NCBI GenBank assembly: GCA_000091205.1
Contig: AP006492.2
DNA from: Cyanidioschyzon merolae
Taxonomy: Eukaryota
DNA: 64,000 nucleotides
Strand: one strand, 5' to 3'
The position numbers were made by a program, and so were the translations under genes. Below are positions 8,903 to 63,355 of the stretch, piece by piece. The notes under the pieces are model-generated. The model worked only from the letters and a program-made list of their open reading frames with translations, did no database searches and was not told the DNA's origin. Position 1 is the stretch's first letter, and every line of letters begins with the position of its first letter.

Positions 8903-9529
8903 ATGCTGAGCCTCAAACTGTCGTTGGTCGCCGTGGCGCCGCTCTGCTGCGCTCGGTTTCGGAGTCTGGTACCTGCTCGGAAACTGGAAACCTCTTTGGA
9001 GCAACCCGTGCGTAAACGAACCAGGAGTGGAGGATCGGTACGGGATGTGCCTGAGCCGGCCTTGCCCACGAACGAAGCGGTTCCAGCGGCTATTCGAGAA
9101 CTGATTCGCGCAAGCGCTGCCTGCTCGTTTTGGGAAGAAACCCACATCGATGCGCTGCACGACAAGGGTCTCGTTATTAACGGACTTGTTTTCAACAGCC
9201 GTGCGCTGCTGCTGCTGCCACACTATGTGCTTTCGGTACCTGCTGTGAACCGTGTGAGTGACGTGAGCCGGGACGCACTTTGTTTTCTCGAACTGCTCAG
9301 ACCGATGCCTGGAACGCTCATTCTGGGCTGCGATGAGGCGAACGCACCCGCCGCCCGAAACCTACTTCCAGCTGATTCAATGGAATATTTGGAGAAGCAT
9401 CTTGGCGTATCCTTCGAGAGTACGACAGTCGCTCGAGCTTGTGCAACATTTAATTTTTTGAACGAGGAGCGGCGCACTCCGGCTGCCCTGGTGATCTTGG
9501 GAAGCAAACCCAGCGCTTCTGTGAAATAA
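8903..9529 (+). CDS. Mth938-domain protein (NDUFAF3/AAMDC family), with ~65-aa N-terminal presequence
   Basis: A 208-aa ORF. The segment IDALHDKGLVINGLVFNSRALLLLP...TLILGCDEANAP...YLEKHLGVSFESTTVARACATFNFLNEERRTPAALVILG matches the remembered Mth938/DUF498 pattern (I.GYG..ING..lLlP / llilGtG / T..AcrTyN.L..EgR.VaAal). Confidence 0.5.
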   Translation: MLSLKLSLVAVAPLCCARFRSLVPARKLETSLEQPVRKRTRSGGSVRDVPEPALPTNEAVPAAIRELIRASAACSFWEETHIDALHDKGLVINGLVFNSRALLLLPHYVLSVPAVNRVSDVSRDALCFLELLRPMPGTLILGCDEANAPAARNLLPADSMEYLEKHLGVSFESTTVARACATFNFLNEERRTPAALVILGSKPSASVK

Positions 9530-11421
9530 ATGTTACTGATGAGACGACTTGGCTGTTCAATGCGAAGCGAAGGTATGAGAGTATCTAGCGAGTCGCGAGC
9601 ATATCGCGAGTTAGAATGGAACGACTTGCTGGCGAGAACATCGCTGACAGCTTGCCCGAACCTGCTAGGGCCAGCAGCATTTATTCCATGTCAGCGGGAA
9701 ATCGATTCACGAAGTCGTAGTTAAGAAGGAAACGCTACTGTGGTTCACGAGTATTCCCGAAAAATTTCTCCCGGTGTATGTCTACGGCGCTCCGGTCTTG
9801 GCAAAATGCTGAACTGAACCGTCCCTGTGCCATGGCCGAAGCGAGAACCCAATGACCTCTCTCCTGATCACTGCTTCTTTTCATCGAAAGTCTTCAGTGT
9901 TTCTTCGAACTGCTCACACCTAGTACTGAAATATTTCCGCAAAATCTCGCCAGATGCAAAGCCGCTGGACATTGCAGAAGCACCAGACATTGCCGGATAT
10001 TGATCAGGGCGTTCAAGTCTCGGTGTAGAAAAGTGCTTTCGTGCTGCGTCGCTGGTGAAATCCCATCTCAGCAATCCGTTCACATGTGATTGCCTCGCCG
10101 TCTGTCCTTCTGTTAGCGTACCGTACAGCATGCAGAGCATCTGGCTCTGTTTCACGCTCTTGTTCTCTAACTGATTCAGCATACAAGCGTGCTTGTGATG
10201 AATGTACGTCGTCTCGTAGTCATAGACGGAGATCGTACAATATCGATTCCTGTGGTCTTTGAACGCTTCGGCAGCGGGCGCGAGCGTGCAGTATTCACGC
10301 TCTACAGCACGTGCAGCAATCTAGGTTTCCTTAAACCGACGCGGTATGTTGGCAAGTTTTGCGTCCAACGAAGTGAATATGTTGGGAAATGTGCACCTGA
10401 TGTACCCGTACACGCGGAAGCGCTGGCGAGCCCAGCCCGATCGCATGCACCCCCACCCGTGCCCGAAACCGTCCATATGAGCCATTTGGACGCTCATGTA
10501 AGCTATGAATGAAGCGCCCAGAGCGTTTCCCCTGTTCGATACAGGGTAGGGAACGTCGCGATGGGTCCTGGCACCATCATTCGACCGGTGGTTGTACCTC
10601 GTGGCCTCCATCACGTCCAATTCCCAATGAAACCGAATCCAGGAAAATCAGATTGTATGGTACGTTCAGAACCGAGCAGCAGTTGTTGCACAAAGGAGTT
10701 ATCGAAAAATACCACAGCGTTGTGTGCAACAGGCATGCCCTGCGTCATGAACGCCCACGAGCAGGTGCTCGGGGAATTGCCCCAAGGCATGGGAAGGTAA
10801 TCAAGGCGTAGTCGACCATAGACGTGTGATCAATGGAACGAAACCCTCAAGCTACTGAATTGTAAATGTTTACTCATCCACAGACGTCTCCCAGTCTTTT
10901 TTGACCAGCTTCCTGCCATCGGTTGTAGTTTATCCTTGCACTTTTCGACATTGAGACGCTACCTCACGAAGTGAGACCGCCTCGGCTCCTGAAATCTCGT
11001 CCTCTCTACCAAACATCTCCTGATAATCATAGCAGCGTTGAAATCTTCGTTCACGAACTCGATGCGTACATGGACGCTGTTTGAACGCGCCAATACAAGG
11101 ATTCCTGGAACGATTGCCCTCTATGGCACTATGGTCTCGTTATCGTCCTGTGGGGCAAACATTTTTCTCGTCAGCATCCTCATTTCTTCCTTTTCTCCTT
11201 CATCATCAGCTAGTCTCCGCTCGATGGTCGGGCAAGATGAGGATTTTTCCGTCTTTTCTGGCAGCTCAGGGCAATGAGGGCACTCCAGAATCCCCGAATT
11301 TTATATGCACACCAATCCCTTAGATGCTGCATTTCTTAAAATGAACGTATATGGAACGCTTCTGGAATGAGCCGCGAAAAGCATTTGATGACACGCAGCA
11401 AGAAGGCGGAACACAATCAAG

Positions 11422-12908: not shown

Positions 12909-14489
12909 CTATTTAGCTCCTTGCATCCAGCTGACAAAATTTGCAAATTCGCGCAGATGGTGCTTTTCCAGCAGTTCGGGTGTGAGGCGCAAATACGTAA
13001 AGCCGCAGAGCGTCTTTCTCGTCTCCGCCTTGCGGCCAAAAGGTAAGGATATGCCCCAGGAGGATGGTTTCGCTTGAGCGACGATCTGCTTGTACGCTTT
13101 GCGATCGTAACGCGGGAGCGCATTCTCAGCCGCGAGCGCAACGCCGTGCTTCTGGGCAGCGATGCGGACGCGATTGACGAGGCCCTCGGGACTGCATTTT
13201 CCCTCACGCTGCTCGCTATCGCGCATCTCGTAGCAGGTGAAATTCCAGATGATGCCATGTTTGCGCAGCAGTGCTGCAATCCCATCGTACATGGTCCAGG
13301 GGTCATCGGCGGTGTGATAATAGCCAGCCGTCATCTCGGCCGCGTGGCTTGGCGTTTTGAACCACCAATGGATACCGGCGACTTTGATCCCCAGGCGGAC
13401 GCGCCGATCTGCAATGTACGAATGGAAGCATTTGTTGGCAACGACTAAAACACGCTCACCATGTTCCAGTAGCTTGCTTCCGTACCACTTGAGAAAGAAG
13501 CGGCCAGCCGGTGTGGCATACAATGAGCGGAAAAACTCCGACTGATCCGGAGTGTCGCAATACGATCCGGCGGTATCGCGTGGTGGGATGCATTTGCGAA
13601 TCTCATCCTCGGAAAACTTCTGGTTTGCGAGCGCTTTCTCCAGATCTTTCATCAGAAAAGTATCATAACACTGGAACTCGCCGATTCCGGGGAATTTCCA
13701 CTTCCCGTCAGTGAGCGGATACGATGGATAACGTAGTTCGCTGGCGGGACCCATGCCAATGTGCACCTCGTGAATCACTGTACCGAAAAATTCGTCTCCA
13801 AAGTCTTTCACGAAAGCATTCATAAACTCCTCGTAACATTGAAGCGGGGAGCGCATCTCCACTTGTGCGCTGGCCGCTGGTGCTTCGGTTTCAGCCGAAG
13901 CCTGTGCGTCCGTCGCTGGTGAAGACGCATCTTGCCCAGATGCGGCCTGCTGCTCCGAGTTCGCAGCGGCGCTCTGTACTGGGAAAAGCGGTTCCTCGTC
14001 GGCCCCACACGATATGTACTCCTCGCTCATGTAGCCGTGCCGATCCATGTACAAGATCACTTTATTCTCTTTCTCTTTTAGTTCACGGGCACGTGCCAGC
14101 ACCCATTCGGGTAACCCGTAGGTAACGGAGTCGCCGACGTTCCCGCCGCACTTGTGAAAGCCCAGCACCACTTGACACTTGACGCCCAGTCGCTGGCACA
14201 TGGAAAACAGCGCTCGATAGCGATCCTCGCACCAGGTGTACTTCCGCGGCTCCTGTTCACAAAGACCCCACCAGAGATCCACCATGAACCCGGCGCACTT
14301 ACTGGCGCCAGCCACGTGCGGGATCGTCTGCTCGACTAGACGGCGACAATCGTTCTCATCCATGGTCGGGAACTCCAACGGAAGCATCACGTAGATGGGC
14401 ACGCTGTCGACAACGCGACTGAAAGATCGAAGGATGTTCCAGGTTCTTTGCATCTTTGGCGTTGTTTGGAAGCAGCTGTGTGTATGCAA
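12909..14489 (-). CDS. Beta-amylase (glycoside hydrolase family 14)
   Basis: The 526-aa ORF carries the GH14 signatures VYVMLPL, HKCGGNVGDSVTYGLPEWV and GMGPASELRYPSYP. It contains an Ala/Ser/Gln-rich low-complexity insertion. Confidence 0.9.
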   Translation of the reverse strand: MHTHSCFQTTPKMQRTWNILRSFSRVVDSVPIYVMLPLEFPTMDENDCRRLVEQTIPHVAGASKCAGFMVDLWWGLCEQEPRKYTWCEDRYRALFSMCQRLGVKCQVVLGFHKCGGNVGDSVTYGLPEWVLARARELKEKENKVILYMDRHGYMSEEYISCGADEEPLFPVQSAAANSEQQAASGQDASSPATDAQASAETEAPAASAQVEMRSPLQCYEEFMNAFVKDFGDEFFGTVIHEVHIGMGPASELRYPSYPLTDGKWKFPGIGEFQCYDTFLMKDLEKALANQKFSEDEIRKCIPPRDTAGSYCDTPDQSEFFRSLYATPAGRFFLKWYGSKLLEHGERVLVVANKCFHSYIADRRVRLGIKVAGIHWWFKTPSHAAEMTAGYYHTADDPWTMYDGIAALLRKHGIIWNFTCYEMRDSEQREGKCSPEGLVNRVRIAAQKHGVALAAENALPRYDRKAYKQIVAQAKPSSWGISLPFGRKAETRKTLCGFTYLRLTPELLEKHHLREFANFVSWMQGAK

Positions 14490-14670
14490 GCGCTACGCGA
14501 CTAGAGGAGTGAGCGCGTGCTCCGCAACAACAGCAACAGCAGCAGCAGCAGTAGCAGGCAATGTTGAACGCTCGCCATGGCGCACCTGGCACGGCGCATC
14601 GAATGTGTGGTGTGCTGCGCTCGAGTTCGTGTCGCCATAGATTTTTTTCTTTTTTTCATGGAGAGGACGT

Positions 14671-14696
14671 TTACTTAGGCCAGCGTTCTCCGAGTG
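14671..14696 (+). promoter_or_regulatory. 26-nt motif TTACTTAGGCCAGCGTTCTCCGAGTG about 180 bp upstream of the beta-amylase start codon (gene on the minus strand); second copy at 49700-49725
   Basis: 24/26 identity with 49700-49725 (TTACTTAGGCCAGCGTTTTCCGATTG). Both copies have the same orientation, both are flanked by T-runs on the plus strand, and both lie in the 5' flank of a minus-strand gene. Confidence 0.4.
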
Positions 14697-16424
14697 TGCG
14701 CATTTTTCTTTTCTTACTTTTTCTTGTGTTTTTTTTCAGTGCGAGGTGAGTGTCGCCATGGACGGCGTGCAGCAGCGATCTGGCGCAGGCTGGCGCATAA
14801 CGTTTCAGAGAGCATACGCTGCACGACTGTGGTGTTTGTACAGAACGAACGACCTATGTCAGAAGGAAACCGGCACTGTACGAATCGATGAGTTCATTTG
14901 TTGGTTGAGCGCGTGAGCAACAGCAATAGCAGCAGCTGCGGCGGCTGCGGCGGGGGCGAGAATGCGCCAGTGATCATGACGGGTACCCGGCTACGCAACA
15001 GAGCGAGAAGAATCAAGAGTGAGTTCACGAGGTATTCTATGTTTGTGTAGACGGTGCGAGAACAGTCGCAGGTATACCACAGAGTACGAGTCGACAAGAA
15101 GCAAACAGGTTGACTACGAGGCACTCGTTGAGGTCGTGGAGGCGGCACGCATAAACCCTGGTATCGCCCGGGGTATAATCGTAGTTTTGGTGTACAGCGG
15201 CGTGCAGCATCCCGCGTCCAAGTTCGAAACCGCAGCCACTGAGAACGAGATTCTGCCGAACCGCTCTACTGTGCTTGTTTCTAGACAGGTATACGTCGCC
15301 AGACGGTATGGTCCCGGAGCTCCCGTTCGAGGCGTCACAGCGATATCTGCCTGGTTTATTCCGACGGATGCTGTGGGGAAAACGTCCGTATCTACGGATC
15401 ATCATGAAGGTAACGCGGGTGTCCGGCCTGGGATCGTCTCTGTGGCTGCATTCGTGCATGCATTGATGCATGGACGCATAACGCCACAGTGCTGCGGACG
15501 TTGTGGCAACGTCACGGCACGCAACAAACGCAGGCTAGGAGTACTGCGGAGGTTCATACGTCGTCGAACAGCCACATTGCCTCGCTAGATAGGTCGATAT
15601 GACACCATCCTCTGGTCGAGGTAGGTGTCACACGGATGCAGCGAGCGCGCACTAGAACGATTGGAGTGCAGCTGCCGTGCTATGATCGATGCTGGTGCGA
15701 GCGCGCCTCGAGCTTCTGCAACCATGTCTGAGCGGATACAAAACTAGGTATGGATGCACAGGTGATGGGCGTCGCTGGCGCTGCTGTGCGGCGCGAGAGG
15801 CGGGTGCTGTTTGAGTGCGTCGGGGGCGAATCCAGATGTCAATTCACAGTAAGCAGCAATGCCGGATAGCTCGCACGCCATCGACAATGTTCACACTCTA
15901 TGTCTGTGAATGCGTCTCCCGTGTCCGGTTTAGAGGGCTCAAGCCTCGACACGACGCTCACCGGGCATGTAGGATGCTCTCCTGAATCGCTGCTAGAACT
16001 GAAACTGGTTCTGTAGCGGGCGCTGGTGCGCCAGCACTGTCTGACGGCACCGGTGCCTCGAAACAGAACCATCCGCAACGTCCAACAGCGAAGCAAACTC
16101 GTGTGTAATTTGCCTCGCTCTTGGTTTGCACCGGGAGCATCGATTTTCATGCGAGCATAGGCTAGGCTCGCCGGAGAGCGACACCGTCACTCTTTGCAAA
16201 TCGCGCATCTATAGGGGATACAGCATCGTCCATTGTGGAAAAGGGCGATCATGAGATCCGCGACTTGAAGTGCGTCCTGTGCCAAATGTTCGGAACGCGC
16301 TACCCTGTGAACGCAGCTGACGCGCCGGTGTCTCGATGTTGATGGTCACTTTAGGGCATGCCTTGTGATGACACCGCATGCGTGAAGCACCGAGAGAATG
16401 CTAGTGTGCGAGCATACAAGCCGC

Positions 16425-17027
16425 CTAGTCTTCGCGCTCGGTAGGTCCGGTTTCGGGGAGCGTCCCTCGGAAGGGATTTTCCTGTTTCCGGTACGTGTCA
16501 TAGACAGCAATCCCCGCAGGGTGGCGCGACTCGAACTCTTCGATGAACATTTCCAGCCCGCTAACCGGAGCCAAAGCACCTACAACACCACGAGGTATCC
16601 GATGACGAGCCGGCGGCGGCGGCGGCGCCCGTACACTTCGAGGAGGAGCCATACCGCGCTCCGTCGCTAGGGAGCAAGTCAGTGACTCTGCAGCGGTTCG
16701 ACGCACACTCGTGATGCGCAGGATCTGTTCGTCTAAGCGGAGCTGGTGCTGGACTTGCGGTAGCGCCTGCGGAAAAAGAAAAGCTCCGCACTCTACAAAG
16801 CTAGCAGCAACGTGCTTCTCCCGCGTCGGGCCTCGAAGTTTCTGGGGTAAGGGCCTTGCCGCCGCCTCGTACAGTCCAGCGGGTGTGAACGCCGACGGCA
16901 GTGCACGCAAGCGAGTCACAATGCCGCCCGCATCCATAAAACGAAGCACAATCCTTTTCAGTAGCTCATGAAGCTCTCCTCGCCCCAGACGTGAATCAAT
17001 CAACATAAGCGTTTCATAGTACGGCAT
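16425..17027 (-). CDS. Mitochondrial ribosomal protein S6-like
   Basis: The N-terminus MPYYETLMLID...ELHELLKRIVLRFMDAGGIVTRLRALPSAFTP parallels animal MRPS6 (MPRYELALIL...[28 protein letters not shown]). The C-terminal extension is Pro-rich. Confidence 0.5.
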   Translation of the reverse strand: MPYYETLMLIDSRLGRGELHELLKRIVLRFMDAGGIVTRLRALPSAFTPAGLYEAAARPLPQKLRGPTREKHVAASFVECGAFLFPQALPQVQHQLRLDEQILRITSVRRTAAESLTCSLATERGMAPPRSVRAPPPPPARHRIPRGVVGALAPVSGLEMFIEEFESRHPAGIAVYDTYRKQENPFRGTLPETGPTERED

Positions 17028-17334: not shown

Positions 17335-19959
17335 ATGGACCCGCTCTGCAGCGAATGGAACGGGAATAATAGCATGGATTTTCTGAAAAACTTGACCAAG
17401 GAGCAGTCGGTTGTGGTCCGGGCGCCATTGGAGCGCTCTCTACTCATTGCTGCGAGCCCAGGAGCCGGCAAGACGCATACGCTCTTGAGTCGGTTGGCGT
17501 TTCTTCTCTTGAGCGGAAAGCTGGAACCTGGGGAATTTGTTTTCTTCACTTTCAGCCGTGCTGGAATCGAAGAGGCTAGGAGTCGCCTTGAGAAGCACGC
17601 AGCTATCGAACCGCTCGTTAGAAGTGCACGAACGACGTTTCAGCAGGCGTTCCAGACGCTGCACAGCTTCGGTAGGCGGCTCGTGGAAAGCACCGCGGCA
17701 CCCGTTCTCGAGCGTACCTGCCAACGGCGAACGTTCATGAACGTCATATCGCAAACGCAAAAGCGGGCGATACTGCGCGAGGCAATAGAGCGTTATCGCC
17801 AAAGGCTCCAGACGAACTGGGATCGACTTCCGTCCTGCACCCAGCCCCTGTTTCATCAACTTGAGCTCAGCGCACTGGAGAGCGACGATGCCGGCGCCGA
17901 AATGGCGAAAGGTGCCAAGTCATCGGACGACCGTCTGGTAAAAGAGATTTCCGTTCAAATCGCTGAACGCAAAGCGAGGTTCATCTCGCCACCGACATTG
18001 GAACAAGTCGATAGCGCTGCGTTCCAGTGGCCTCTGCTCGACTTTGTGTACGCCCTGTACGAGTGCTGGTTGCAGCATCTGAACTGCATCGATTTCGACG
18101 ATATGATCGTTATGGCTGTACGCATCCTGGAGACGCAAGCAAATCCGCCGCATCTATTCCCGCGAGGCCTGCGCCTCATCCTCATTGATGAATTTCAGGA
18201 CACGAGCGCGAGCCAGTTGCGTCTGGTGCGTGCGCTCGCCAAACGCTACGCTTGCACTGTCTGTGCTGCTGGCGACGACGACCAGTGCATCTACGAGTGG
18301 CGACAAGCCCGGCCTCAGTTTATGACAGAATTTACGCGCTTTTTCCCCGATGCAGCAGTCATGTTCCTGCGGGAGAGCATTCGCTGTCCCGTGAATATCG
18401 CCTGTTGCGCAAATGCGTTGATCCAGCACAATACGCGTCGGCTCTGCAAGAGCATTGAACCGCTACCCGGATACGAGCAACTGCGGGTACGGATTATTCT
18501 GGGGCGTTGCGTTGAAGATGAGGTTGCGTATCTTGGACAGGAGCTTGTAAGATTGCACACGGAAAACGGGGTTGCCTGGAAGGATATGGCAGTGTTATGC
18601 CGCGTTGCACAGCCACTGGAGACGCTCCGCAAGTTGCTCCGCGAGCGCGACATCCCCTATGCTGGTGCCGAGCAGTCCAAGACAGTAGCTCGTAATCCGC
18701 AAAATGAGTACGGCATTCGCATGCCCGCGAGCAACCTCGATCATGCCTGGCGAGAAACGCTCATTCTGGCCAGTCCTTTGGTTAGTATGATCACGCTTCT
18801 GGTGAACGAGTACGATTTGCATTCGCTCGATGACGCCTGCAAGGCCTATGCGCCTTCTATGCATGCGCTCACCAGGACGTGCGTAATCGATGAGGCTCGC
18901 AAGCGCCGCAACATGCCGTTGATGCGGGTTGTGCAGTACATGGTCGAGAACGCCCAGGAATTCTTCGAGGGCGTCCCTGATCGCAATACGATGCCCATCA
19001 ACGTATCGCAGAACGCCAAAGCGAACTTTGTGCAAGCATCTGTCGCGCCTGGCAGGCTCGCGCCGGGTTTCAAACGTGTGTCGGAACCTGCACCCGATGC
19101 ATATCGTCCAAAACTCAGTCAGGGTCAGTGGAAAGCGTGCCGCGTGCTTCTCGCGGCATACGAGCGGCTGCTCGTCATTGCACGGGATCTGGGTCCCGAA
19201 ATCCGACTCGAGCGCATGCTGGAGGTCGCTCTGGAATTGCTGCCTGCTTCCGCTCCACAACATGGATGGAGCATTACGAACGATACGCGTCGCCTTCTTC
19301 GGCATCTTGCTCATCATGTCGATGAAGAAGCCCGTACCCGATGGGAATGGGCTTCAGGAGCTGCAGCGCTCCCGTCTCCGTCTCCATCTGCTGGGCCTGA
19401 TGCCGGTATATCCAACAATTACGGGACGGACGAGGAGCAACGGTGTTCGTTGCAGCCTGCCGCCGACTCGAGCAGCAAGCTACTCTACGGTGCACTCGCA
19501 AGGCGAAGACGGTGCACGCCCTTGGCACGGAACGAGTTGGGCATTCGATCGAGTGCCAGTCATCACGAAAAGGACTCGTGGCGCAAGCCTCTGCGTCAGC
19601 TACTGCTCTGTCTGCAGGATGCATGGCAGGAAGGCACTCGTGCATTCGCCCATGCTCGTCGCAAAGTGCCGCTAGATGCAGTCGCTGTATCTACGATACA
19701 CAACGCCAAAGGCAGAGAGTGGCCTTTTGTATTCATTTTGCGTGCGGTCCAGGGATCGTGCCCGTTGCTCTACCCGGAAGTCGATCTGGAGGAAGAGCGA
19801 CGCGTGTTCTACGTCGGGTTGACGCGGGCCCGCCAACAGTGCACGATCCTCGCGAGCGAACCGCAGACAGGCAAGCAGCAAGATCCGCAGCAGCAGCCAT
19901 CTATATTCCTCGATGAGCTCTCTGCGCCTCACTGCGAGCGGATACAATGGCGTCCAGTT

Positions 19960-19995
<36 letters not shown>

Positions 19996-21735: not shown

Positions 21736-23440
21736 TTACGGGACAGAATAACCAAGCATTCTGGCTCAGCTTGGGACAAAGTCGGAGCCCAGCGCGTAGC
21801 GACGTGCGCGACCTCAGCGATGCACCTGGCGATCTCGGTGGTTAGCGTCTTTCTACTCAGATTCCTTTCAGGTTTGCTGCGGTGTATCGTACGAGGTCGA
21901 GGTCACGACGAAATGTATTGTATAGATTGTAGGTGAATTGCCTGTAGGATATATGCTTGCCTGAAGCGTGAAAAGAGAACTGCATTCCGGCCTCAGGTAA
22001 GTGATACCATTGTACTCAGATGGTTGAGGAACACGGAAAGAAAGACGTGGATGCGCTTTGAGCCATTAACCGATACGCTTAAAGACTGCAGGCGTTCAAT
22101 GGTAGAAAACGACGCCTTAATGACCTTAGGGGAAGCAAAATTGACGATGATAGTCGCTACGGGCGTCCTTGTGTCTCAACAGCTTGCTCATGTCGTGGTG
22201 ATCATACTGGGATCCAGGCGCCAAAAAGAGAAGAGTTCTGGTACACGCACGACCATTTTCTTCCCAAGTCGGAACGATAATGTTACTGCGACGTCGCGAT
22301 CGATATAAAGCACAGGGTCGTGGATTCCTTTTTGTTTTTCAATCTACGGCACTTGCTTCCCACGAAACCGTCGAGGTACATAGGGGTATTCGCGGAGCAG
22401 GGCGCTCGTTGGCCGTACGATCGAATTCGAAGAGACCGAGGACACCGTCCTCTAATCTATCTGCAGTGGATTCATTCCACGGCGTCAGTTTCTCTCGCAG
22501 GGAAGGCGCATACAATCGCACCCGCTTTGTCGTACTATTGAAGACTTTTCCCTGTCGTCTGGTGACGTTTTCTGTTCGAAAATGTGGTATTTCACCATTC
22601 ATCTTGCGTTTCGGCTTTTGCGGATTCTGCCGGGGTAGGGCTGCTTTTCATTCCTCTGTACGCTCCGAGATTCAACTCCGTCAAAGGAATGTTTTCCATC
22701 TTGATGCGTAGTGGACGCTCCCCTGGCCGAATTGCTCAAGCGTTCAGCACACGGTGACACACGCGGGCACCGCGACACATTTCGTCTTTTTTCAGTAGTC
22801 CTTCTACGTCCGGGGCCGTCCTCATCTAAGGGCATAAAGCAGTGTGTCCAACTAAAGTATTAAAAAATCCAAGGGATGAGCTACGGTGCACACTTCAGAA
22901 CGTCGAGATGGAGACGAGGCAGCGGATCGCCTCGGTGACAGCACAGATCAGAGAGCTGACAGCGCAGCAAATCGCACAGGCAGCACCAGTTCGATGCCTC
23001 CATGAATTGCCCAGATCAACCAGAGGCAATAAATCCATGGAGTTTTAGTACCGAGACTTGGAGGCCTCCACAAGTATCCGACGGTGTGCGGTGCTAAAGA
23101 AAAGACACGCAGAGCTGACAAGCGGAATTTTCGTAGGGCAGCCTCTCAGGCTCGAGGGATACGAGGCCGAAGCTGAACCCCGTCGCAGAAGGCGGGTCTA
23201 AAAATGCTTGGAGATGCCTCCAAGAAGGTGTATACATAAGCGCTACTGTCGTGCGACTTTTTTCTTTGCTTTATCAGTCGTGTGTAGAAGGCAGTCGGGT
23301 CGCTGCATCTCGCCGGTGTCTCGCGCGATTGCTCGCGGCTTTCTGTGGCACGGACGGGCGCTGTGGCGGGCCGCGGAATCCCCAATGGAAATTTGAATTT
23401 TTCCTTCGATTTCTCCTGGAACGTGCTGCTTCCAGAGATC

Positions 23441-25205: not shown

Positions 25206-25239
<34 letters not shown>

Positions 25240-25253
25240 CACACACACACACC
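25206..25253. repeat. Compound microsatellite (CAGA)8(CA)6 in the Rho-GTPase / NhaD intergenic region
   Basis: cagacagacagacagacagacagacagacacacacacacac, read directly from the sequence. Confidence 0.95.
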
Positions 25254-31729: not shown

Positions 31730-32197
31730 TCACTTGTGCTTACGAACCTTTTCCCGCAGAACGCTCTCATTCGCACCCGTCAAGTCATCGATCTTCTTTC
31801 CTCCTTTATAAAATATGAACGTCGGCATCGCTGCAACCCCGCAACGCTGGGCAAGATCCGGAAGCTTGTCCACGTCCACTTTGATGAACTCGACTGTACC
31901 CGCGTACTCCTCCTGGAGTCGTTCTAAGACCGGGGCGATGAACCGGCAAGGACCACACCAGACAGCATAAAAGTCAACCACAACAAGCTTTTCAGTTCCT
32001 GCTAGAATTTGATCGAACTCTTCAACCGACTGAACCTCTTTCACCATGCTGTCAAACGTCTGCCTATGAGAAAAAACGCTCTGGAAGAATTGTAGACATG
32101 GTGCGCGCGCGCGTGTGGCGACGCTGTCGCCGCTGTTGTGGCCTGTGCATGAGGCGGCGAGGCGCGGCAGCAGCGCTGGCGACTCGGGCGGCGACAT
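31730..32197 (-). CDS. Thioredoxin (h/m-type) with 50-aa N-terminal extension; the mature protein likely starts at the Met at 32047
   Basis: VVVDFYAVWCGPCRFIAPVLERL (WCGPC active site), MPTFIFYKGGKKIDDLTGAN. Confidence 0.85.
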   Translation of the reverse strand: MSPPESPALLPRLAASCTGHNSGDSVATRARAPCLQFFQSVFSHRQTFDSMVKEVQSVEEFDQILAGTEKLVVVDFYAVWCGPCRFIAPVLERLQEEYAGTVEFIKVDVDKLPDLAQRCGVAAMPTFIFYKGGKKIDDLTGANESVLREKVRKHK

Positions 32198-32236
32198 GCT
32201 GCTGCTGCTGCTGCTGCTGCTGCGCGCGCGCGCGCC
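32196..32236. repeat. Microsatellite (CTG)9 followed by (GC)7, just upstream of the thioredoxin start codon
   Basis: ctgctgctgctgctgctgctgctgcgcgcgcgcgcgccc, read directly. Confidence 0.95.
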
Positions 32237-32982: not shown

Positions 32983-33128
32983 AGCGCCGCCAGAGAGATT
33001 GCCTCGATGACGCAGATGCCGAGCGCGCTGGACGTTATCGCTGGACGATCAACGAAGCGCCGCCAGAGAGATTGCCTCGATGACGCAGATGCCGAGCGCG
33101 CTGGACGTTATCGCTGGACGATCAACGA
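32983..33128. repeat. Perfect 73-bp tandem duplication in the thioredoxin/fibrillin intergenic region, immediately upstream of the fibrillin start (33146)
   Basis: agcgccgccagagagattgcctcgatgacgcagatgccgagcgcgctggacgttatcgctggacgatcaacga occurs twice back to back (32983-33055 and 33056-33128). A shorter gcgtgctggt x2 lies at 32938-32957. Confidence 0.9.
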
Positions 33129-33808: not shown

Positions 33809-34659
33809 TTCTGGGTGCTACGTGTGAATGGGGGCCAGCGTTCGCGTCTCACCGTGTCGACGCCCGGATTCGAGCAACACGAAAGCGAGATCATGCACAG
33901 AGGCGTTCGTGAAAGCGCAGCAGATAGGTATCCGCTCGAGACGGCGCTTCCGGCTGGTGCGTCGCTCCGAAAGCGTCCAGACACACGCCTGAAGTGCGTC
34001 GCACAAAGCGTTCCTGTCAAGCGCGACCTCGTTTCCGGGTAGAGCCATGCATCCGGACAGACGCCTACGATGAGCTCGCAAAGGCTGCCTGCGCTCCCGA
34101 GTGCACTGGGCAGCGCCCGGTTCCCTGCTGGCTCTGACGCTGTTCGACAGAGAGGACACGCCGTGGGATGCGGTGACGTCGCTGTTCCTGTTGTCGTCGT
34201 CGTCGTCGGATGGCGTCGCTGGCATATTTACAGCCCGTTTGGGTCGGCAGCGCTTCGTCAGGAGCGGTTGCGTCCACTGGAATTCGTGCTTGTATGGCGA
34301 GTCAAGCACTCGCATAGCACGACGAGCCTGCGCGAGCCAGCGACCATGACCACGAGCCCGAAATCTGGTGCAGGGGATCCACACTCGCCGTCCCAAGGAT
34401 ATCCCGGTGCTCGTGAACGCAGCATCTCGAACAGGGCGGCGATCCACGTATGTGCTGACGGACTGGTTGCGCTCGAGCGTCGCACCAGACTTGCGGGCGA
34501 TGTGCGCGGCACCCATACCGCCTTCTAGCCGTGGGTATCTGAGCACGCGAGCACGCTTTGGGAAAACGCAAGCGAACCGTTTAGCGGGCCTGGCTGGGCG
34601 TCGAATCGCCATTCACGGGATCCTGTGAAACGTCACAAGTCATGACGTTACCGTTACCC

Positions 34660-45405: not shown

Positions 45406-45930
45406 TTAGACTCCCGGATGGAGGAGCATGAGTAGTCGACGTTGGCGCACGACGACTTGTTCACAAGTTGATGCCGGATGCTCACTGAAGTTGTCATTTT
45501 CAATAATCGATTCCGTTGGAGAGAGAAATCCAACTTGATTTGAGGCCATCGATGAATCTGTATTCGACAGTAGCATGACATCTCTCATGGCATATGCCCC
45601 GAGAGGCTCCCGTCTCTTCTGTTTGCGACAAAAAGGGTATTGGAATCGGATGTGAGTTATCGTAGCGATCGCTTCCAGTGGAACGTGTGTTACTGCGTTG
45701 CCCGAATCGAGTGCAGACGGATCGAAGGTTCGCGAGGCCTTCTCAAGCGTCGATTTTGCTTCCGGCACTTGTTTCACCACGGATAGTATCGTGCTCCACA
45801 AATCCGTCACCGAATGGAACAGCATGGGCCCTTGCGCGTGCAGCAGACAAAGCCCTCGTCGACGGCATCGCCACGAAGAATCACCCGATCTGTGGGGCGT
45901 CGCCCCTGGTCCGGAAACGGAGGCGTGCAT
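45406..45930 (-). CDS. Member (diverged copy) of a small repeated ORF family also present at 56626-56862 and 62051-62380
   Basis: The C-terminal block LFHSVTDLWSTILSVVKQVPEAKSTLEKASRTFDPSAL aligns with LFRSIEYLWNAMLPIMKQVTDGKSRLENKSRNFEPSTL through conservative substitutions (I/V, M/I, D/E, T/A). The start region MHASVSGPGA shares the cgATGCACcCCTCCGTTTCCG context. Confidence 0.3.
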   Translation of the reverse strand: MHASVSGPGATPHRSGDSSWRCRRRGLCLLHAQGPMLFHSVTDLWSTILSVVKQVPEAKSTLEKASRTFDPSALDSGNAVTHVPLEAIATITHIRFQYPFCRKQKRREPLGAYAMRDVMLLSNTDSSMASNQVGFLSPTESIIENDNFSEHPASTCEQVVVRQRRLLMLLHPGV

Positions 45931-46553
45931 CGAGGCGAGCCTGCTGTGCCCGTCATGGATATGTACAGCGTGATAGGGAAAACGTTCATGTTTTACTGGG
46001 CGGTGCCCAAATGAAGAGATGTTTTGGACGCATGGGAGTCATCGACAGTGGTCAAGTGTCACTGCTGCGAAGCGTGCATCAAGGCTGTATACCTAAAAGA
46101 TGGAAATGGCTAGCGAAGCATAGATCGCTGCTCCCGCCTGTGCATGGAAATCGTAGACAGCAGCAGGTAGCCGCGACATATCGGGATGCGCACGCTACCG
46201 TCATCGTCCTCCGACTGCGAACACCGGAACTGGAGTGACGGGATAGACCTGTGTATTTAAGGCAAATCATGAGGGCAAGGAAGAGGAGGCAGTCGCAGAA
46301 ACAGCCCATAAATTCGGTTTTGATATTCATCGTACATGAGCAAAGCTTCAGCATGAGTGCACCCGAGTTCGAGAACCTGCTCTATGTTTTCTGACATGGG
46401 CGCATGGAATTGCTCGCTGTCTGCATGGTTTACTGGATGCGGTGCCCTGCGTTGTCATCGGTTTTGGCAGACACGACTCTTGAACAAGCGTGCGGACTGG
46501 ACGCGCTCCTTCCGAGGCGTTCCTGAACAAGTGAGCTTCACAGCTTTCATGAC

Positions 46554-48148: not shown

Positions 48149-49624
48149 TTAGTGCTTCCCAGATTTCTGAGCGCCGGTAAACCTCGCCCAGAGCGCCCAC
48201 TGCTGACTACCCCAAAACGTATTTCCCCAGCGCAGCAGGTAGGTGGCTACGCCCTCAACAAAACGAGGCGAATTTCCGAGGATTTTCGGGAAGATGTGGA
48301 TTTCGATTCCATTCACTAACTGGTAACGAGTACTCGAACTCAGTCCCAAGAACAAACCGTACATGATAGAGGTAAAGAGGACGTTACTCTTGGGGTTCTG
48401 CGGAACAAACTCGGGATCCAGCATTTGACGTACCGACAGGAGTACGTTGGTGACGGAAACCCCGATCGCCGCGCAAGCAGTACCCGTAACGAACAACTGC
48501 GTGGCTTTGAACAGATAGCATGCAATGCGCTGCTGCAATGTATATGGACGATCTACTTGGAAGATATTCGAAGGCATTCCGTTTGTATAATTGGAGACGA
48601 TGCGACCAACTGACCCAAAAGGACTTGAAGTTGCCATGGCGGGATTCAGTTTCACCGAAGGTGCCGGGAAGTAGACAAGCGCAAAGTCTGCCAGCAGTGC
48701 CATGAGCACGTTCGCAAAGACAAAGTCGAGTTCATCGAAGAAGCGATCCCGACGTACCTCGTACTCGGCACTTAGTTTCCCGCAAAGGCCTAGACCTTCT
48801 TCTATCAAAATTTTGGTGAGGAAGAGGTTATCTGCGAGGAATCGCTCACGCATCCCGCGCGATGTTCGGTTCATCAGGAAACGCGACACCGGATTGGATG
48901 CGGCGTAGATGTAGTTCTTAATCACAGCAGCCGAGATGATGCCCTTCTGGAACGCTTCACGGACATCATTTGGGATGTCGTTCCAGGTAAAGGAACGCGA
49001 CTCCATGAACCGAGTCAAGTCACCTGCAGCGCTCAGCGGACGCGATGGTTCGAAGCTGCCCTCGTCGCCGCCGCCGCCGCCGCCACCACCACCACCACCA
49101 CCGCCACCGCCACCGCCACCGCTCTTGCCTCCGGTGCCGCCAAAGTCGCTCCCCTCGTAACGAGGCTCGCTGGGTGTTCCGGGTGCTCCAGCGCGCGCCT
49201 CATAGCCGGTTTCGTCCTCTAGTGACTGGCCCCCGTTTACTGGCACGGTATTCAAGTCCGTAATTCGTGCGTGTGCAGTGCCTCCAGCATCGACTGATAA
49301 TACTAAACTTCGTAGCGGGCGCCGCGCTGGCACTCCCACGGACCTGTGTGCACGGACGGGCACTCTTGGTGGCGATCGCAATGACGTCGCGCCCCGGCGG
49401 AGCGCTCGCCGGCAACCCGTCCAGACATTCGTGCAACCCCACGAAGAAGATACCACAAAAGCCATGATGCCGCGGGTGCAAGGTTGAATTATTCGAGTTT
49501 CGTCCAGCGGGCTGCCGACTTCGTCGCCGGTCCTCTCGAACAGCACTAAAAATGACGTTCGATGATGGGCGCGGAGCGTATCGGCCGATCGCCGGCCGCG
49601 GCGAACGCCGTCCAACTGGTACAC
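48149..49624 (-). CDS. RETICULATA-related (DUF3411) family protein, plastid-envelope type, with an 18-residue poly-Gly tract
   Basis: RFLADNLFLTKILIEEGLGLCGKLSAEYEVRRDRFFDELDFVFANVLMALLADFALVYFPAPS parallels the DUF3411 core remembered from plant RER proteins (R.LADPSFLYKLLLEQ...NRKDRIKQEWDLALINVL...). C-terminal hydrophobic helices are present. The poly-Gly tract comes from the (GGC/GGT)n repeat at 49062-49135. Confidence 0.6.
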   Translation of the reverse strand: MYQLDGVRRGRRSADTLRAHHRTSFLVLFERTGDEVGSPLDETRIIQPCTRGIMAFVVSSSWGCTNVWTGCRRALRRGATSLRSPPRVPVRAHRSVGVPARRPLRSLVLSVDAGGTAHARITDLNTVPVNGGQSLEDETGYEARAGAPGTPSEPRYEGSDFGGTGGKSGGGGGGGGGGGGGGGGGGDEGSFEPSRPLSAAGDLTRFMESRSFTWNDIPNDVREAFQKGIISAAVIKNYIYAASNPVSRFLMNRTSRGMRERFLADNLFLTKILIEEGLGLCGKLSAEYEVRRDRFFDELDFVFANVLMALLADFALVYFPAPSVKLNPAMATSSPFGSVGRIVSNYTNGMPSNIFQVDRPYTLQQRIACYLFKATQLFVTGTACAAIGVSVTNVLLSVRQMLDPEFVPQNPKSNVLFTSIMYGLFLGLSSSTRYQLVNGIEIHIFPKILGNSPRFVEGVATYLLRWGNTFWGSQQWALWARFTGAQKSGKH

Positions 49625-49699
49625 CGCGCTGCATACGTGGCGTAATGCCGGCGGCGAGCGGCGCGTTGTAGGCAGGATTGTTTTTCCCTGACAAACCGA

Positions 49700-49725
49700 T
49701 TACTTAGGCCAGCGTTTTCCGATTG
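49700..49725 (+). promoter_or_regulatory. Second copy of the 26-nt motif, about 80 bp upstream of the RETICULATA-related gene start codon (49624, minus strand)
   Basis: See 14671-14696. Confidence 0.4.
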
Positions 49726-51535
49726 GACGCCTCCTCTGTCTTTTTCTTCAGCTCACGGTGAAGCATCCGTCAAACCCATCGCTTCCGAGTTCCATCACCC
49801 ATATTTCTTCTCGGACATACCGGTCGTTTCTCATGTTCTATCGTGTGTGCCTAGTACCTGCGGTTCTGTATCCGCCTTTGGACCTTAATAGCTGGGGCAG
49901 ATAGCTCATAGAGACACAAAGGCTTTTCTATACCACAAAGGACGTCGGTTCGAGGCGTGCTTCATCCGACCTAGAATCGGGTCTCGTCGTCAGTTTGTGC
50001 CTGGACAGTCTGCAGATGCAGGTTTGCCTTTACTGTACGACACGTTAGAGACACATTTGGCTGTTAGGATATATCCTGGGAGCCGGCCCGTTCCCTCGTG
50101 ATCTTTCATGAAATGCATTGTCGTTTCGCGACACGGGCTCGTGTTTGGCATGTGCGAGTGGGTAGGCCCAGAAAGCGCACCGGGCCGGTGTGCGCATCCG
50201 ATTCAATGGACAGCGCGCACCAGTGCGATGAGGGCGCGCGACCGTCTGGCGAGGCGTGCAGATCCCGCTTCCGACACCCGGTATCGCATTGAAACTGCGA
50301 GCACTGCGCTGTCGATACTTGATGGAGGCACTTTATTCGGTACGAGCTCACACAAGGGTGTGCGTTTCACATTCGATTGGCGGGGTGCGCTTCATTGGCG
50401 AGTCGAATGCAGCCCGAGCGCGGTGAAAATGGTCTCACTGCTCGGGGGACGTTCTATGAGCAGAAACGCGATGCTTCGAATAGCAGCTGCCGGACTGGTG
50501 TTCTGCTGGTGAATTGCGCCAGCAATTTGGGAACCTCGAGATCAGTACAACAGCAGGTGTGATGCTGAGCAGGTGCGCCTCACTTGCCTCTGCGATATCT
50601 ACGGACGAAGGATGCATGGTTTCATGATCGGCATGCCGCCGAGCTGGCATCGTTCGGTCGGTTCGAGGCAACATGCTAGGCGTTCTGGCGCCCCGCATCG
50701 AATCCTGCTGTGCAATGCCGGCCTGCTTTCTTTGAGCTGCATGTTTAACTTCCGTCTCAGAAGCGAAGATTGCGCCGATTACGCGAGATCGATATGCAAT
50801 GAGAGTACCTGGAAACGCGTCCCGTGCGAAACGCTGTCGAGCATGGCAGCGGCTTCCATGTACCAGATCAGCGCTTTCCGGTCCATGAACATAGAGGGAA
50901 CCTTTTTTTCCTGGTATGCCGAACTCGCCAGTGCGGGCGTTCGGCCGGCGCCCTGCTGTTCGTTCGTTTACCGTATCCGCGAGCGCCAAGCCTCGCTTGC
51001 ACCGATGCCTCGGACCGGAGTGTTCTGTGCATGCTGCCAAATTGTAGAAACGCCGAATTCATCTTTGAAACAACGGCCTCTGTCCTTTGCGGTTCGAGTA
51101 TGTCTGCAGAGGCATGTATCTGCCTAGGATACATGTGCTCTTCCTCGCGAGCGCGCTACCAACCACCCGCCCCGAAAAACATCGACTCAAGACACCTGCG
51201 CGTGATTGTTTGCTGCGGCATTTTGCTTCCACGGCAGAGCAGGTCATCCGTTGCATAAAGATATTCGCGGGTCATTTATGCATGACTAGAGCGCGGCAAC
51301 CTTTGACTCGGTCATTACCAGACAGCACAGACGCAGGCCGTTCAGATGTGTGCAGCCGCTCAGCGCTCCCAAATCGATTACCCTAAACGGATTCTACCAA
51401 CTGCTCGAGTACTCCCAGGTATCGACGTACAACCTGCTGTTCCTGTGCAAACCTATGGGTACGCCAACAGCTCGAGAAAGGTCTCCCCATGGGGTGTCAA
51501 GGCCGGAACGAATGCGCCACGCGAGGCATTGCTTT

Positions 51536-56289: not shown

Positions 56290-56532
56290 TTATGGCTCTA
56301 AATACGCCTGGCCGTCCGGTACCTCTAGCTCCGCTGTCACCAGTCGTTGGATGTTGATGGCAGCGTCCAAGGCCCGTTTTCGCTGGTCCAGGACTTTTTC
56401 AACGTATTTCATGCACAAGTGGTTCTTGCGAGCTCCGCCTTGCTGTCCATTGTCATCTTCGTCGTATGCAGACTCAATGCGTCCTTCGCAGCGGTGACAC
56501 TCGACTATGGTCGATGATTCGCATGTGTCCAC
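56290..56532 (-). CDS. Small ORF (80 aa) in inverted-repeat arm 1; paralogous N-terminus to ORF 62375-62566
   Basis: IVECHRCEGRIESAYDEDDNGQQG versus VECHRCERRAESECKENDHGKRS in the other arm; sequences diverge after about 25 codons. Confidence 0.2.
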   Translation of the reverse strand: MDTCESSTIVECHRCEGRIESAYDEDDNGQQGGARKNHLCMKYVEKVLDQRKRALDAAINIQRLVTAELEVPDGQAYLEP

Positions 56533-56625
56533 CCGGGATCCTCGCTAGAGCGCCGTCCTGTTGCGCGTGAACGTTTTCTCCATCAACCTGTACGTGCCCG
56601 TGACGGACGTAGAGGACTCTGTTCG

Positions 56626-56862
56626 ATGCACCCCTCCGTTTCCGCGTCAGGAGCAGTACCCGGCGATCACGGGCTTCTCCTGGACGATGCCCTTAGCGAT
56701 TATTCTACCAGCTGCATACGCAAGCGCACGCTGTTCCGTTCCATAGAGTATTTGTGGAACGCAATGTTGCCCATCATGAAACAAGTAACGGACGGGAAAT
56801 CCCGGCTGGAGAACAAATCGAGAAACTTCGAGCCCTCTACGCTCCCTCCGCCCAAGCAGTAA
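56626..56862 (+). CDS. Small ORF (78 aa) in inverted-repeat arm 1; member of the repeated ORF family (copies at 62051-62380 and 45406-45930)
   Basis: About 93% nucleotide identity to the arm-2 copy. The substitutions between copies (D/G, A/T, D/E, R/H) keep the frame open. Confidence 0.3.
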   Translation: MHPSVSASGAVPGDHGLLLDDALSDYSTSCIRKRTLFRSIEYLWNAMLPIMKQVTDGKSRLENKSRNFEPSTLPPPKQ

Positions 56863-57808
56863 CGCGCTTTCCACTGGAAATGTTCGCCGCAATGACCAAA
56901 TTCCCAGCCCAGGACTCTTTTCCGAACAAGCAGAACAACCAACAGCCTCTGGGACTATATGACGTGAATTGCACTAAGCTGCTGGGGAACGCGCTTTCGT
57001 CGATATTCACAGAGAAACAAGCACCTGTATTTCGATAGGAGTTGATTCTCTCGCGTCGGAATATCAGTGTACTTTCGGTATCATCTTCTGAGCGATTTTT
57101 CCAGAATACATCGCGTTTTTCCTCGTCAATCAAGCGACGCGCATCGCTGGCTCTCTAAGCGTTGCCTTGAAACACGCAAGCACCGCAGTTGCTTCGACTC
57201 GTGTCCGTTTGCACGCTATCCACACATCAACTACTTTACCAATCCCTGTCCGATTGCGTCATAAATCGCCTTGATTTCAAGGACGTCACGAATTCCAGCA
57301 ACAAAGCGCCCGGTGATCCACTTTGTGACCTCGACCCTGAGTATGCCCAGCCTTTACGAGTGCATCCGTGTGTGCACTGTTTTCCGTACTTCGACGAACT
57401 ACGCTGCACGCCTAGGCAAACGTTGTAAACCAATCACAACACCGGAGTACAGTAAGCGGCCCAGTGTTCCACGAGAACCAGACACACACACACACACTGA
57501 GATCGACGCTCGACCACGGCAGCCGCAGGCACCCGCCCGTCGAGCAGTTCCGTTCAGAGGAGAGGAAAGCGCGCGCGTGATGTCCATTTTGGGATGCCAT
57601 CAACTGTGGCGCGCCAATCGTCTGTTGTTGCGGGTGCGCGAGTCCCAGCGCCGACGGCCTGCGCGCGCCCCCTCGGTGGTACATTGCGCGCAGGTCGCTG
57701 GACGGCGGCGACGCTGCCACCCGCGTACCGATCCTGAGCGATGCAGCGGCCGGTGCGCTGGGGCGCGGGCTGGTGCCGATAGCGTCCCCAGCGAGATAAA
57801 CAGGCGCA

Positions 57809-61373: not shown

Positions 61374-62050
61374 GCGACATCCTGGGCAAGTAACGGTGAA
61401 CGAAAAACATGGATCTTTACATTCGATGCACGCTTTGGAGTCGTGATTAGAAGTAATACCTCGATAGTTGAAGTAGACGAATGGGGTGTTTAGGATTTGT
61501 AAGGAGGTTTAGGAATGTCGGTCGTCTATATGGAGTTGCCGCTTCGATTCCTTGCCGCTGCGTGTCGAGGCGTCATCGGATGCAAGATGATTTGCGACGA
61601 TTTTGGACAAGCGCTTACAAGACAAGTACCCGGATGATCCAGCTTCTATGTACGGCGCCTCCGTGCTTCCCTTGTTGCTCTTGGTGTCGCATGAGCGAAT
61701 CACGCTTTATTTGATGGATCGATCTTTCTCTTTTGACGCGAATCGAGGACGTAGCGCTTCGCGCCACAGGATTGAAGAGGGAAAACTCCGTGTCTTTTGG
61801 ACGACATGATCATAAACTCGTGCCGAAAGTTCACTGAATGTTTCATGTGGACGAAGAAACGATTGCGTGCGAAAAGCATGTGGCTCTCTCTTTGCTGGCG
61901 TCGACAAAACGGCAATTCCTTGAGCAGAATCGTGGAATTCACGGGACAGGCCCCTCTCCGAATACCGTCTCATCTGTTGCATGGAAAACGGCCTTGGACT
62001 CGGAATTCAGTGACCAAAATGATCGCTTCTGGTAGAGCGTGCGTTACCGC

Positions 62051-62380
62051 TTAGGGGAAAGGGAGTATAGAGGGACCGAAATTTCTCGACTTGGTCTCCG
62101 TACTGGATTTCCCGTCCGTTACTTGTTTCATGATGGGCAACATTGCGTTCCACAAGTACTCTATGGAATGGAACAGCGTGCGCTTGCGTATACAGCTGGT
62201 AGAATACTCGCTAAGGGTATCGCCCAGCAGAAGCCCGTGATCGCCGGGTACTGCTCCTGACGCGGAAACGGAGGGGTGCATCGAACAGAGTCCTCTACGT
62301 CCGTCACGGGCACGTACAGGTTGATGGAGAAAACGTTCACGCGCAACAGGACGGCGCTCTAGCGAGGATCTCGGGTGCAC
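62051..62380 (-). CDS. Small ORF in inverted-repeat arm 2 (paralog of 56626-56862)
   Basis: ...MHPSVSASGAVPGDHGLLLGDTLSEYSTSCIRKRTLFHSIEYLWNAMLPIMKQVTDGKS..., the same frame as the arm-1 copy. Confidence 0.3.
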   Translation of the reverse strand: MHPRSSLERRPVARERFLHQPVRARDGRRGLCSMHPSVSASGAVPGDHGLLLGDTLSEYSTSCIRKRTLFHSIEYLWNAMLPIMKQVTDGKSSTETKSRNFGPSILPFP

Positions 62381-62566
62381 GTGTGGAAATCAGTGACCAA
62401 CGTCGAGTGTCACCGTTGCGAAAGACGCGCAGAGTCTGAATGCAAAGAAAATGACCACGGCAAGCGAAGCATCGATTGCAACTTCGATCTGTGTTTAGAT
62501 GGCGTAGAAAACGGCCGGGAGCGGGGCAACCCGGAAATCAACGCTGTCATCAACATCCTTCAATAA
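62375..62566 (+). CDS. Small ORF (63 aa) in inverted-repeat arm 2; paralogous N-terminus to 56290-56532
   Basis: Shared VECHRCE-R-ES block; weak evidence of coding. Confidence 0.15.
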   Translation: MHVWKSVTNVECHRCERRAESECKENDHGKRSIDCNFDLCLDGVENGRERGNPEINAVINILQ

Positions 62567-62722
62567 CGGACAACGGTACTGGAGCGACACGAGAGACCAG
62601 CGCTTTCAAAGCCTGGGACGAGGAAGCTGTCCCAGGAAACGCCCTCAAGGGCCACGATTGCTAACACTGACTCAAACTTTGGCTTGTACGCGCGTGTTCG
62701 CAGCGTGCACCCAATCCATTTT

Positions 62723-63355
62723 TAGCATTCAACGAGCGTATCGTACACCAGGAAGGGTATGCATGGGTTTATTTTTTTTCATAACGGCCGTATCTATCAC
62801 ACTGACCGTGACCGTCGCCGGGAAAATGTGTTCTGAGCTCGATTCCTTTCGGTAACGTAGGCATCATCGGCAATTCGGAATTAGCATTCAACGAGCGTAT
62901 CATACACCAGGAAGGGTATGCATGGGTTCATTTTTGTCAGAACGGCCGTATCTATCACACTGACCGTGACCGTCGCCGGGAAAATGCGTTCTGAGCTCGA
63001 TTCCTTTCGGTAACGTAGGCATCATCGGCAATTCGGAATTAGCATTCAACGAGCGTATCATACACCAGGAAGGGTATGCATGGGTTCATTTTTGTCAGAA
63101 CGGCCGTATCTATCACACTGACCGTGACCGTCGCCGGGAAAATGCGTTCTGAGCTCGATTCCTTTCGGTAACGTAGGCATCATCGGCCATTCGGAATTAG
63201 CATTCAACGAGCGTATCGTACACCAGGAAGGGTATGCATGGGTTCATTTTTTTCAGAACGGCCGTATCTATCACATTGACCGTGACCGTCGCCGGGAAAA
63301 TGCGTTCTGGGCTCGAGTGCATTGGGTAACGTACGCACCATTGGCAATTCGGAAC
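62723..63355. repeat. Tandem array of four copies of a 158-bp unit (minisatellite/satellite-like)
   Basis: The unit starting ttagcattcaacgagcgtatcatacaccaggaagggtatgcatgggttcatttttgtcagaacggccgtatctatcacactgaccgtgaccgtcgccgggaaaatgcgttctgagctcgattcctttcggtaacgtaggcatcatcggcaattcggaa recurs at 62723, 62881, 63039 and 63197 with a few substitutions. The last copy degenerates near 63300. Confidence 0.9.

Follow-up and report, generated by a model that had tools for sequence, protein, structure and literature searches.

A 26-nucleotide match upstream of two Cyanidioschyzon merolae genes and the non-LTR retrotransposon family that contains it

Introduction

Cyanidioschyzon merolae harbors 26 class I elements related to reverse transcriptases (RT), and all of them are closest to retrotransposons without long terminal repeats (non-LTR retrotransposons; Nozaki et al. 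2007, PMC1955436). According to the account of Luan et al. 1993 that is cited in PMC3627910, such elements move by target-primed reverse transcription. Here we analyze a 64,000-nucleotide (nt) stretch of chromosome 10 of C. merolae 10D (assembly GCA_000091205.1, contig AP006492.2), hereafter the window, in which a 26-nt sequence recurs upstream of a β-amylase gene and of a RETICULATA-like gene. The two matches, together with the sequence that surrounds them, are referred to as copy A (β-amylase) and copy B (RETICULATA-like). They are almost certainly pieces of one C. merolae non-LTR retrotransposon family of the long interspersed nuclear element (LINE) type, and not a motif that evolved in promoters.

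The family resembles 5′-truncated LINEs such as L1 and R2 in having a common A-rich 3′ end, variable 5′ truncation, target-site duplications that are short and variable in length, and an RT open reading frame (ORF) ahead of the 3′ untranslated region (UTR). Some LINEs have a 3′ tail in common with a short interspersed nuclear element (SINE), as in the eel pair UnaL2/UnaSINE1 and in CR1-type LINEs and their SINEs. A ~285-nt unit described below is reminiscent of these pairs in that it combines a fixed 5′ end with the LINE 3′ tail and is found in at least 7 independent insertions with duplications.

Results

The 26-nt match in the window

The 26-mer TTACTTAGGCCAGCGTTYTCCGAKTG is present twice on the plus strand of the window, and its coordinates (Table 1) and the 24/26 identity of its copies are as given in an earlier note on this DNA. 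Both copies have the same orientation (plus as written), each lies upstream of a minus-strand gene, and each is followed on the plus strand by T/C-rich sequence, again as previously described. Only these two sites are found in the window at ≤3 mismatches, with 0 matches in 100 dinucleotide-preserving shuffles, and the match is indeed beyond chance. One of the two differences, written as K in the earlier note, is a G/T difference between copies A and B, and the same position is G/A polymorphic among strains at locus A.

Other details required revision. The distances from the start codons had been put at about −180 and −80; with the β-amylase ATG at 14453 the 26-mer lies ~218–243 nt upstream, and with the first in-frame ATG of the RETICULATA-like gene at 49465 it lies ~235–260 nt upstream. 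The value of −80 is obtained when measuring from a GTG at 49624 that merely opens the RETICULATA-like ORF. Nor is the similarity limited to 26 nt: copies A and B are alike over ~50 nt at 76% identity (family D14), and each can be aligned much further with the family consensus. That no more than 26 nt looked common reflects the shortness of copy A, half of which consists of low-complexity A-rich sequence, and the decay of copy B, which carries a deletion within the A-rich block. The sub-motif GGCCAGCGTT is also present at 33833 (plus strand) and 53691 (minus strand); these were judged chance matches that do not extend past 10 nt.

A dispersed family with a common 3′ end

Family copies were collected by scanning metagenomes with the 19-nt core TTAGGCCAGCGTTNTCCGA (18 specified bases). 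The scan returned 108 stretches, which reduce to ~40 distinct Cyanidioschyzon loci after dereplication by flanking sequence; 31 stretches are in assembly Ga0078972 and 28 in Ga0080006. The loci amount to roughly 30 per genome-equivalent. Two further core matches, on non-Cyanidioschyzon contigs, have unrelated flanks, and about this many chance hits would be predicted for a pattern of 18 specified bases. With the core as anchor, the alignment of the flanks continues far past the 26-mer, and the motif occupies the same place in a longer repeat at every Cyanidioschyzon locus.

The structure of the family, like that of copies A and B, is directly observed. In the orientation of the window every copy opens with poly-T followed by TTTTTTTCATTGACAAAACGTTTACTTAGGCCAGCGTTCTCCGATTATGCGCATTTTTCTTTTCTTACTTTTTTGTGTGTTTTTTCAGTGCGCGGTGAGGTATCCATCAAC..., and because the copies begin with poly-T on the plus strand, the sense strand is the minus strand of the window and poly(A) forms the terminus of the element. 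The 3′ UTR ends with ...ATGCGCATAATCGGAGAACGCTGGCCTAAGTAAACGTTTTGTCAATG(A)n on the sense strand, all copies terminating in ...GTCAATG(A)6–9. On the far (5′) side the break points vary, and copy lengths include ~50, 75, 85, 100, 130, 220, 240, 290 and 530 nt and >4 kb. Direct target-site duplications of 9–20 bp in otherwise unique sequence are found at at least 18 loci, examples being ATCGCACAGGAAC, ATCGCCGCCTGCC, ATCGATCCTGCGGT, ATACAGCATGCAGTG and TCGAAAGAGTATC. They very often start with ATCG (or ATC) immediately after the poly(A), and the copy A junction lies at 14639–14642. Judged from these junction sequences, the ATCG starts suggest a preference at the nicking step (bottom strand ...CGAT^). 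Neither long terminal repeats nor terminal inverted repeats were found in the element.

Copies A and B

Copy A, which is 87–90% identical to other family copies over 14650–14750 (blastn), is heavily truncated. Its poly(A) or A-rich end (~14642–14660) appears as poly-T on the plus strand, with the sense-strand terminus CCATGAAAAAAAGAAAAAAAT. The flanking target-site duplications match at 12/13 positions with a spacing of 121, the target-site sequence reading GTGTCGCCAT(A/G)GA, and because the insert is bounded by this duplication it can be delimited to 108 nt of tail and poly(A) (Table 1).

Copy B is an older fragment, longer and less well preserved, with an identity of ~75% to the family. Its identity to LINE-type family copies is 73–78%, its poly(A) is degenerate (~49681–49687), and at its 5′ end it retains a remnant of the RT-containing ORF. 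Copies A and B are two independent, 5′-truncated, dead insertions of an already known retroelement family.

The T/C-rich tracts that follow the 26-mers are the antisense of the A-rich 3′ UTR and poly(A) of the element; in copy A the tract spans 14700–14738. A splice-site or trans-splicing reading of TTACTTAG followed by G and a polypyrimidine tract was dropped because the tract is the antisense of the A-rich UTR.

Table 1 Features of the two insertions, their host genes and the short-unit loci
Feature	Position	Strand	Remarks
β-amylase gene (PF01373)	12909..14453	−	Product identical to BAM80224/XP_005534831
Copy A target-site duplication, poly(A) side	14629..14641	.	GTGTCGCCATAGA
Copy A, retroelement 3′ tail of 108 nt, heavily 5′-truncated	14642..14749	−	blastn and anchored alignment
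26-nt motif, copy A	14671..14696	−	Sense-strand reading CACTCGGAGAACGCTGGCCTAAGTAA; the earlier note gave the plus strand
Copy A target-site duplication, 5′-truncation side	14750..14762	.	GTGTCGCCATGGA
RETICULATA-like gene, 438 aa	48149..49465	−	From first in-frame ATG; PF11891, E = 4.5e-50
Copy B, 5′-truncated LINE fragment of ~530 nt, 3′ UTR and RT ORF end	49681..50211	−	
26-nt motif, copy B	49700..49725	−	
Remnant in copy B of the C-terminal ~50 codons of the RT-containing ORF	50067..50210	−	tblastn 55% over 51 aa, E = 4e-6
Short-unit loci L040, L068, L106, L091, L118, L026, L107			Metagenome; outside the window

The reverse transcriptase of the long copies

The long copies (L076, L111 and L046) contain ORF fragments that match Pfam RVT_1 (E = 1.7e-17 and 1.7e-5) and are split by a frameshift, and they also display an LLFADD motif and, C-terminally, a Cys-rich motif. 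The RT ORF ends ~380 nt ahead of the poly(A). A frameshift-corrected RT query retrieved 203 RT homologues. The RT is 82% identical to the C. merolae 10D proteins P0022 (chromosome 10) and P0023 (chromosome 11), which are annotated as 'retroelement, alive'. Distant homologues that are 30–38% identical are found in Galdieria, fungi, plants and a brown alga, and an APE endonuclease domain is present in some of these.

The N-terminal RT frame ends identically (...VPWID(W/C)GDAR, followed by a stop) in all sampled RT copies, including L076, L111 and P0022, and the half that contains the FADD motif continues in another frame after this shared stop, also in the 10D protein annotated 'alive'. The stop is either a defect inherited from a master copy or a programmed frameshift.

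The ~285-nt short unit

In addition to copies with variable 5′ ends, the metagenome loci contain a discrete unit of ~285 nt whose 5′ end is fixed at (N)CCTCGAGCCGACGCC, and which is found in at least 7 independent insertions flanked by duplications (Table 1). Throughout its length the unit aligns colinearly with the LINE 3′ end, except for a divergent central block of ~90 nt. At these loci neither Rfam (E ≤ 1) nor ARAGORN (tRNA) gave a match and, compared with a classical SINE, the unit has no detectable head derived from tRNA, 5S or 7SL. Because it is colinear with the LINE 3′ end and lacks a detectable head of the RNA polymerase III (Pol III) type, the short unit may be a tail-only non-autonomous derivative rather than a classical SINE.

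A putative stem in the 3′ UTR reads GGTACGG...CCGTG in the short unit and GGTATAG...CTATG in the LINE, a seemingly compensatory difference; this was observed in a comparison of consensus sequences, and the stem is not in copy A.

Placement of the copies relative to genes

The neighboring genes were taken as the ORFs of ≥250 aa on each side of an insertion, a crude definition that is usable in a nearly intron-less genome. Both neighbors could be called at 22 loci, of which 8 are divergent (5′–5′), 6 tandem with the element co-oriented, 5 convergent (3′–3′) and 3 tandem with the element anti-oriented, and the distance from insertion to ORF ranges from ~0 to >3 kb. The copies thus have no consistent relation to genes, and their spread over all these types of intergenic region, at distances so variable, means that placement is not promoter-specific. 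An orientation bias of 18:4 obtained when counting only the downstream ORF is gone in the two-neighbor analysis; it was an artefact that arose from pooling divergent and tandem intergenic regions.

Host genes and their surroundings

The poly(A) end of copy A lies ~190 nt upstream of the β-amylase ATG, and that of copy B ~215 nt ahead of the first ATG in frame in the RETICULATA-like gene, each element having the same orientation as the gene. The same β-amylase is encoded on many metagenome contigs from JGI and ENA, with an upstream region 99% identical to that of the window; because these strains are so close, their comparison at locus A is uninformative with respect to constraint. The product encoded downstream, which is Tic22-like, is identical to BAM80241 of C. 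merolae 10D. The interval between the RETICULATA-like and Tic22-like genes comprises ~2.1 kb without an annotated gene, and copy B accounts for ~530 nt of it.

A stretch of ~1.6 kb (14763–16424) adjoining copy A is without a recognizable gene; it reaches to the next convincing ORF, at 16425–17027 (minus strand, 200 aa). Neither this ORF nor that at 15019–15588 has a Pfam match. Triplet runs of the CAG/CTG type and (CAGA)n/(CA)n microsatellites are located at 14521–14555, 14911–14957, 19950–19993, 32197–32229 and 25210–25252, the first of these between the β-amylase ATG and copy A. Searches of the whole window with Rfam at gathering thresholds and with ARAGORN gave no match.

Other repeats in the window

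The window contains a tandem repeat with a period of 158 bp (62722–63354; 4 copies, 92–96% identical) and a perfect tandem duplication of 73 nt (32983–33128). A dispersed repeat of ~520–640 nt is present in three copies, at 56299–56887 (minus strand), 61965–62625 (plus strand) and 45451–46259 (plus strand). The first two form an inverted pair that is 81–84% identical and 5.2 kb apart, and the third is ~65% identical. A match to this repeat is also present at L090, an unrelated metagenome locus, and the repeat may belong to the interspersed CMe-type elements (Bao & Jurka 2013).

Beside the LINE copy in L111 there is a TnpB/Fanzor-like ORF (9202–10152 of that locus) with the motifs GVDPGNTN... 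and NRDFHAAINIRR, for which a Pfam search gave no match. Remnants similar to this ORF are recognized by tblastn in the window (27–47%) at 22845–23177 (plus strand), 10027–10647 (minus strand) and 10881–11120 (minus strand), and tblastn gives 82 hits across the fetched metagenome loci. A Fanzor-bearing family of ~150 copies, CMe-1A, has been reported for C. merolae, and the 82 hits fit this family.

Discussion

Of the explanations offered in the earlier note, the core of a dispersed element comes nearest, with the amendment that the element is not very short: the 26-mer is internal both to the 3′ UTR of a multi-kb retrotransposon and to the ~285-nt derivative of this element. A cis-regulatory site and a shared 5′-UTR motif are not upheld, every Cyanidioschyzon occurrence being embedded in the same repeat. 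The two findings that the earlier note named as refuting its idea, a location inside a longer dispersed repeat and further copies placed at random with respect to genes, were both obtained.

The mechanism by which such copies would arise is that of target-primed reverse transcription. The target would be nicked and the element RNA reverse-transcribed from its poly(A) end, and an often premature stop of synthesis would leave copies with a common 3′ end, differing 5′ ends and short flanking target-site duplications. By analogy with other non-LTR elements, copies A and B each probably originated in this way, with premature termination. Their location ~200 nt upstream of start codons may reflect the survival of insertions in the one part of a very compact genome that is dispensable, which would require no selected function.

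The elements described by Nozaki et al. 2007 (PMC1955436) are among the closest known counterparts, being of the same organism and the same non-LTR type, with an RT that is 82% identical. That survey counts RT-bearing elements only, whereas the window copies are tail fragments that lack RT or nearly so. The ~30 tail copies per genome-equivalent, mostly <300 nt, exceed its count of 26. Compared with L1 and R2, an endonuclease domain was not detected in the sampled family copies, although distant RT homologues carry APE, and the suggested target preference is of the ATCG type, in contrast to TTTT/AA of L1.

Several observations weigh against assigning the two matches to a LINE-type family. No endonuclease domain was recognized with Pfam in three frames of two long copies, all sampled copies being degenerate or frameshifted, and tblastn with the APE regions of the distant homologues gives matches only from ~residue 335 onward, again in degenerate copies. 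A target-site duplication around copy B was looked for and none is recognizable, which is consistent with the age of this copy. The two copies in the window have the same orientation as the gene downstream and lie at a similar distance from it, which we attribute to chance. Finally, the copy numbers and contexts are those of Yellowstone-type metagenome relatives that are ~99% identical to 10D.

A further proposal, which is compatible with a retrotransposon origin and does not replace it, is that the 26-mer has been kept alike in active elements as the part of the element RNA that is recognized by the RT, corresponding to the 3′-tail signal of 'stringent' LINEs. Conservation in the tail is highest over the ~60 nt that precede the poly(A) (consensus base frequency ~0.9, compared with 0.74–0.84 further upstream), although similarity at the 3′ end is expected in any case, since short young copies contribute only there. 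One tail is common to the RT-bearing copies and to the short unit that was inserted independently at least 7 times, which such recognition would also account for, and CGCTGGCC.AAGTAAACG is retained in copies that were not picked by the search pattern; conservation within the 19-nt core, however, is not judgeable from hits that were chosen with that core. Folding predicts a small hairpin, AGAACG/CGUUUU, around the motif. It requires a G–U pair that is possible only on the sense strand, but its stability is low (−4 kcal/mol) and does not exceed that of shuffles (z = +0.5 to +1.4), and the copies are too alike for informative covariation. On sequence comparison, recognition of the 26-mer by the RT is conceivable, though on balance unlikely.

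Much less probable is that the 26-mer acts in cis to co-regulate the β-amylase gene, the RETICULATA-like gene and other genes that carry it upstream, whether as a native regulatory site or as one exapted from the transposon; we consider this highly improbable. The arrangement in the window is suggestive, in that each copy precedes the first ATG of a minus-strand gene by ~190–260 nt and is oriented with the gene, and 14/22 loci face the 5′ end of a gene (8 divergent and 6 tandem co-oriented), compared with 8 that do not. The 14:8 split is not significant, however, and divergent regions are also larger targets; 5/22 loci are convergent (3′–3′), at distances that vary over the whole range from ~0 to >3 kb. 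There is no stand-alone Cyanidioschyzon occurrence, all being inside the same retroelement tail.

Nor is the motif better conserved than the sequence around it. The positions that flank the ascertained core are 0.84–0.90 conserved across copies, approximately the same as the unascertained positions of the motif. A blastn search with the tail consensus, in which the core was not required, added three copies that carry 1–3 substitutions inside the 26-mer, and one motif position is polymorphic (G/A) among strains. Alignments of copy B show an exact run of 17 nt at the motif, shorter than the longest runs elsewhere (19–29 nt), as random decay predicts; permutation of the match/mismatch string gives a mean longest run of ~19 nt, so the run at the motif needs no special constraint. 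Nothing in the sequence appears to call for exaptation at the β-amylase or the RETICULATA-like gene.

That the 26-mer is the core of a miniature inverted-repeat transposable element derived from a DNA transposon, or of another very short repeat, might be suggested by copy A with its mere 108 nt and its target-site duplication, but is already refuted by the anatomy of the element, i.e., the lack of terminal inverted repeats, the poly(A) at one end and the variability of the other, duplications that vary between 9 and 20 bp, and long copies that encode RT and not transposase.

The assignment of both matches to a LINE-type retrotransposon family has a corrective value, in that a 24/26 match in two promoters invites a story of co-regulation that is wrong here. 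For annotation, it flags an insertion in the upstream region of the β-amylase gene. The many short tail fragments suggest a retroelement footprint somewhat above the RT-based count of 26, which is a minor refinement.

A more speculative proposal, which we regard as doubtful, is that the ~285-nt unit is an apparently undescribed tail-only retroposon, with a fixed 5′ end, no recognizable Pol III-type head and an ATCG target preference, mobilized by a LINE whose sampled RTs share a mid-domain stop or frameshift, including that of the 'alive' protein. If true, a genome regarded as nearly free of transposons would contain a LINE/SINE-like pair that is young and more numerous than the published count of retroelements, and insertions ~200 nt upstream of genes such as that for β-amylase might occasionally be co-opted.

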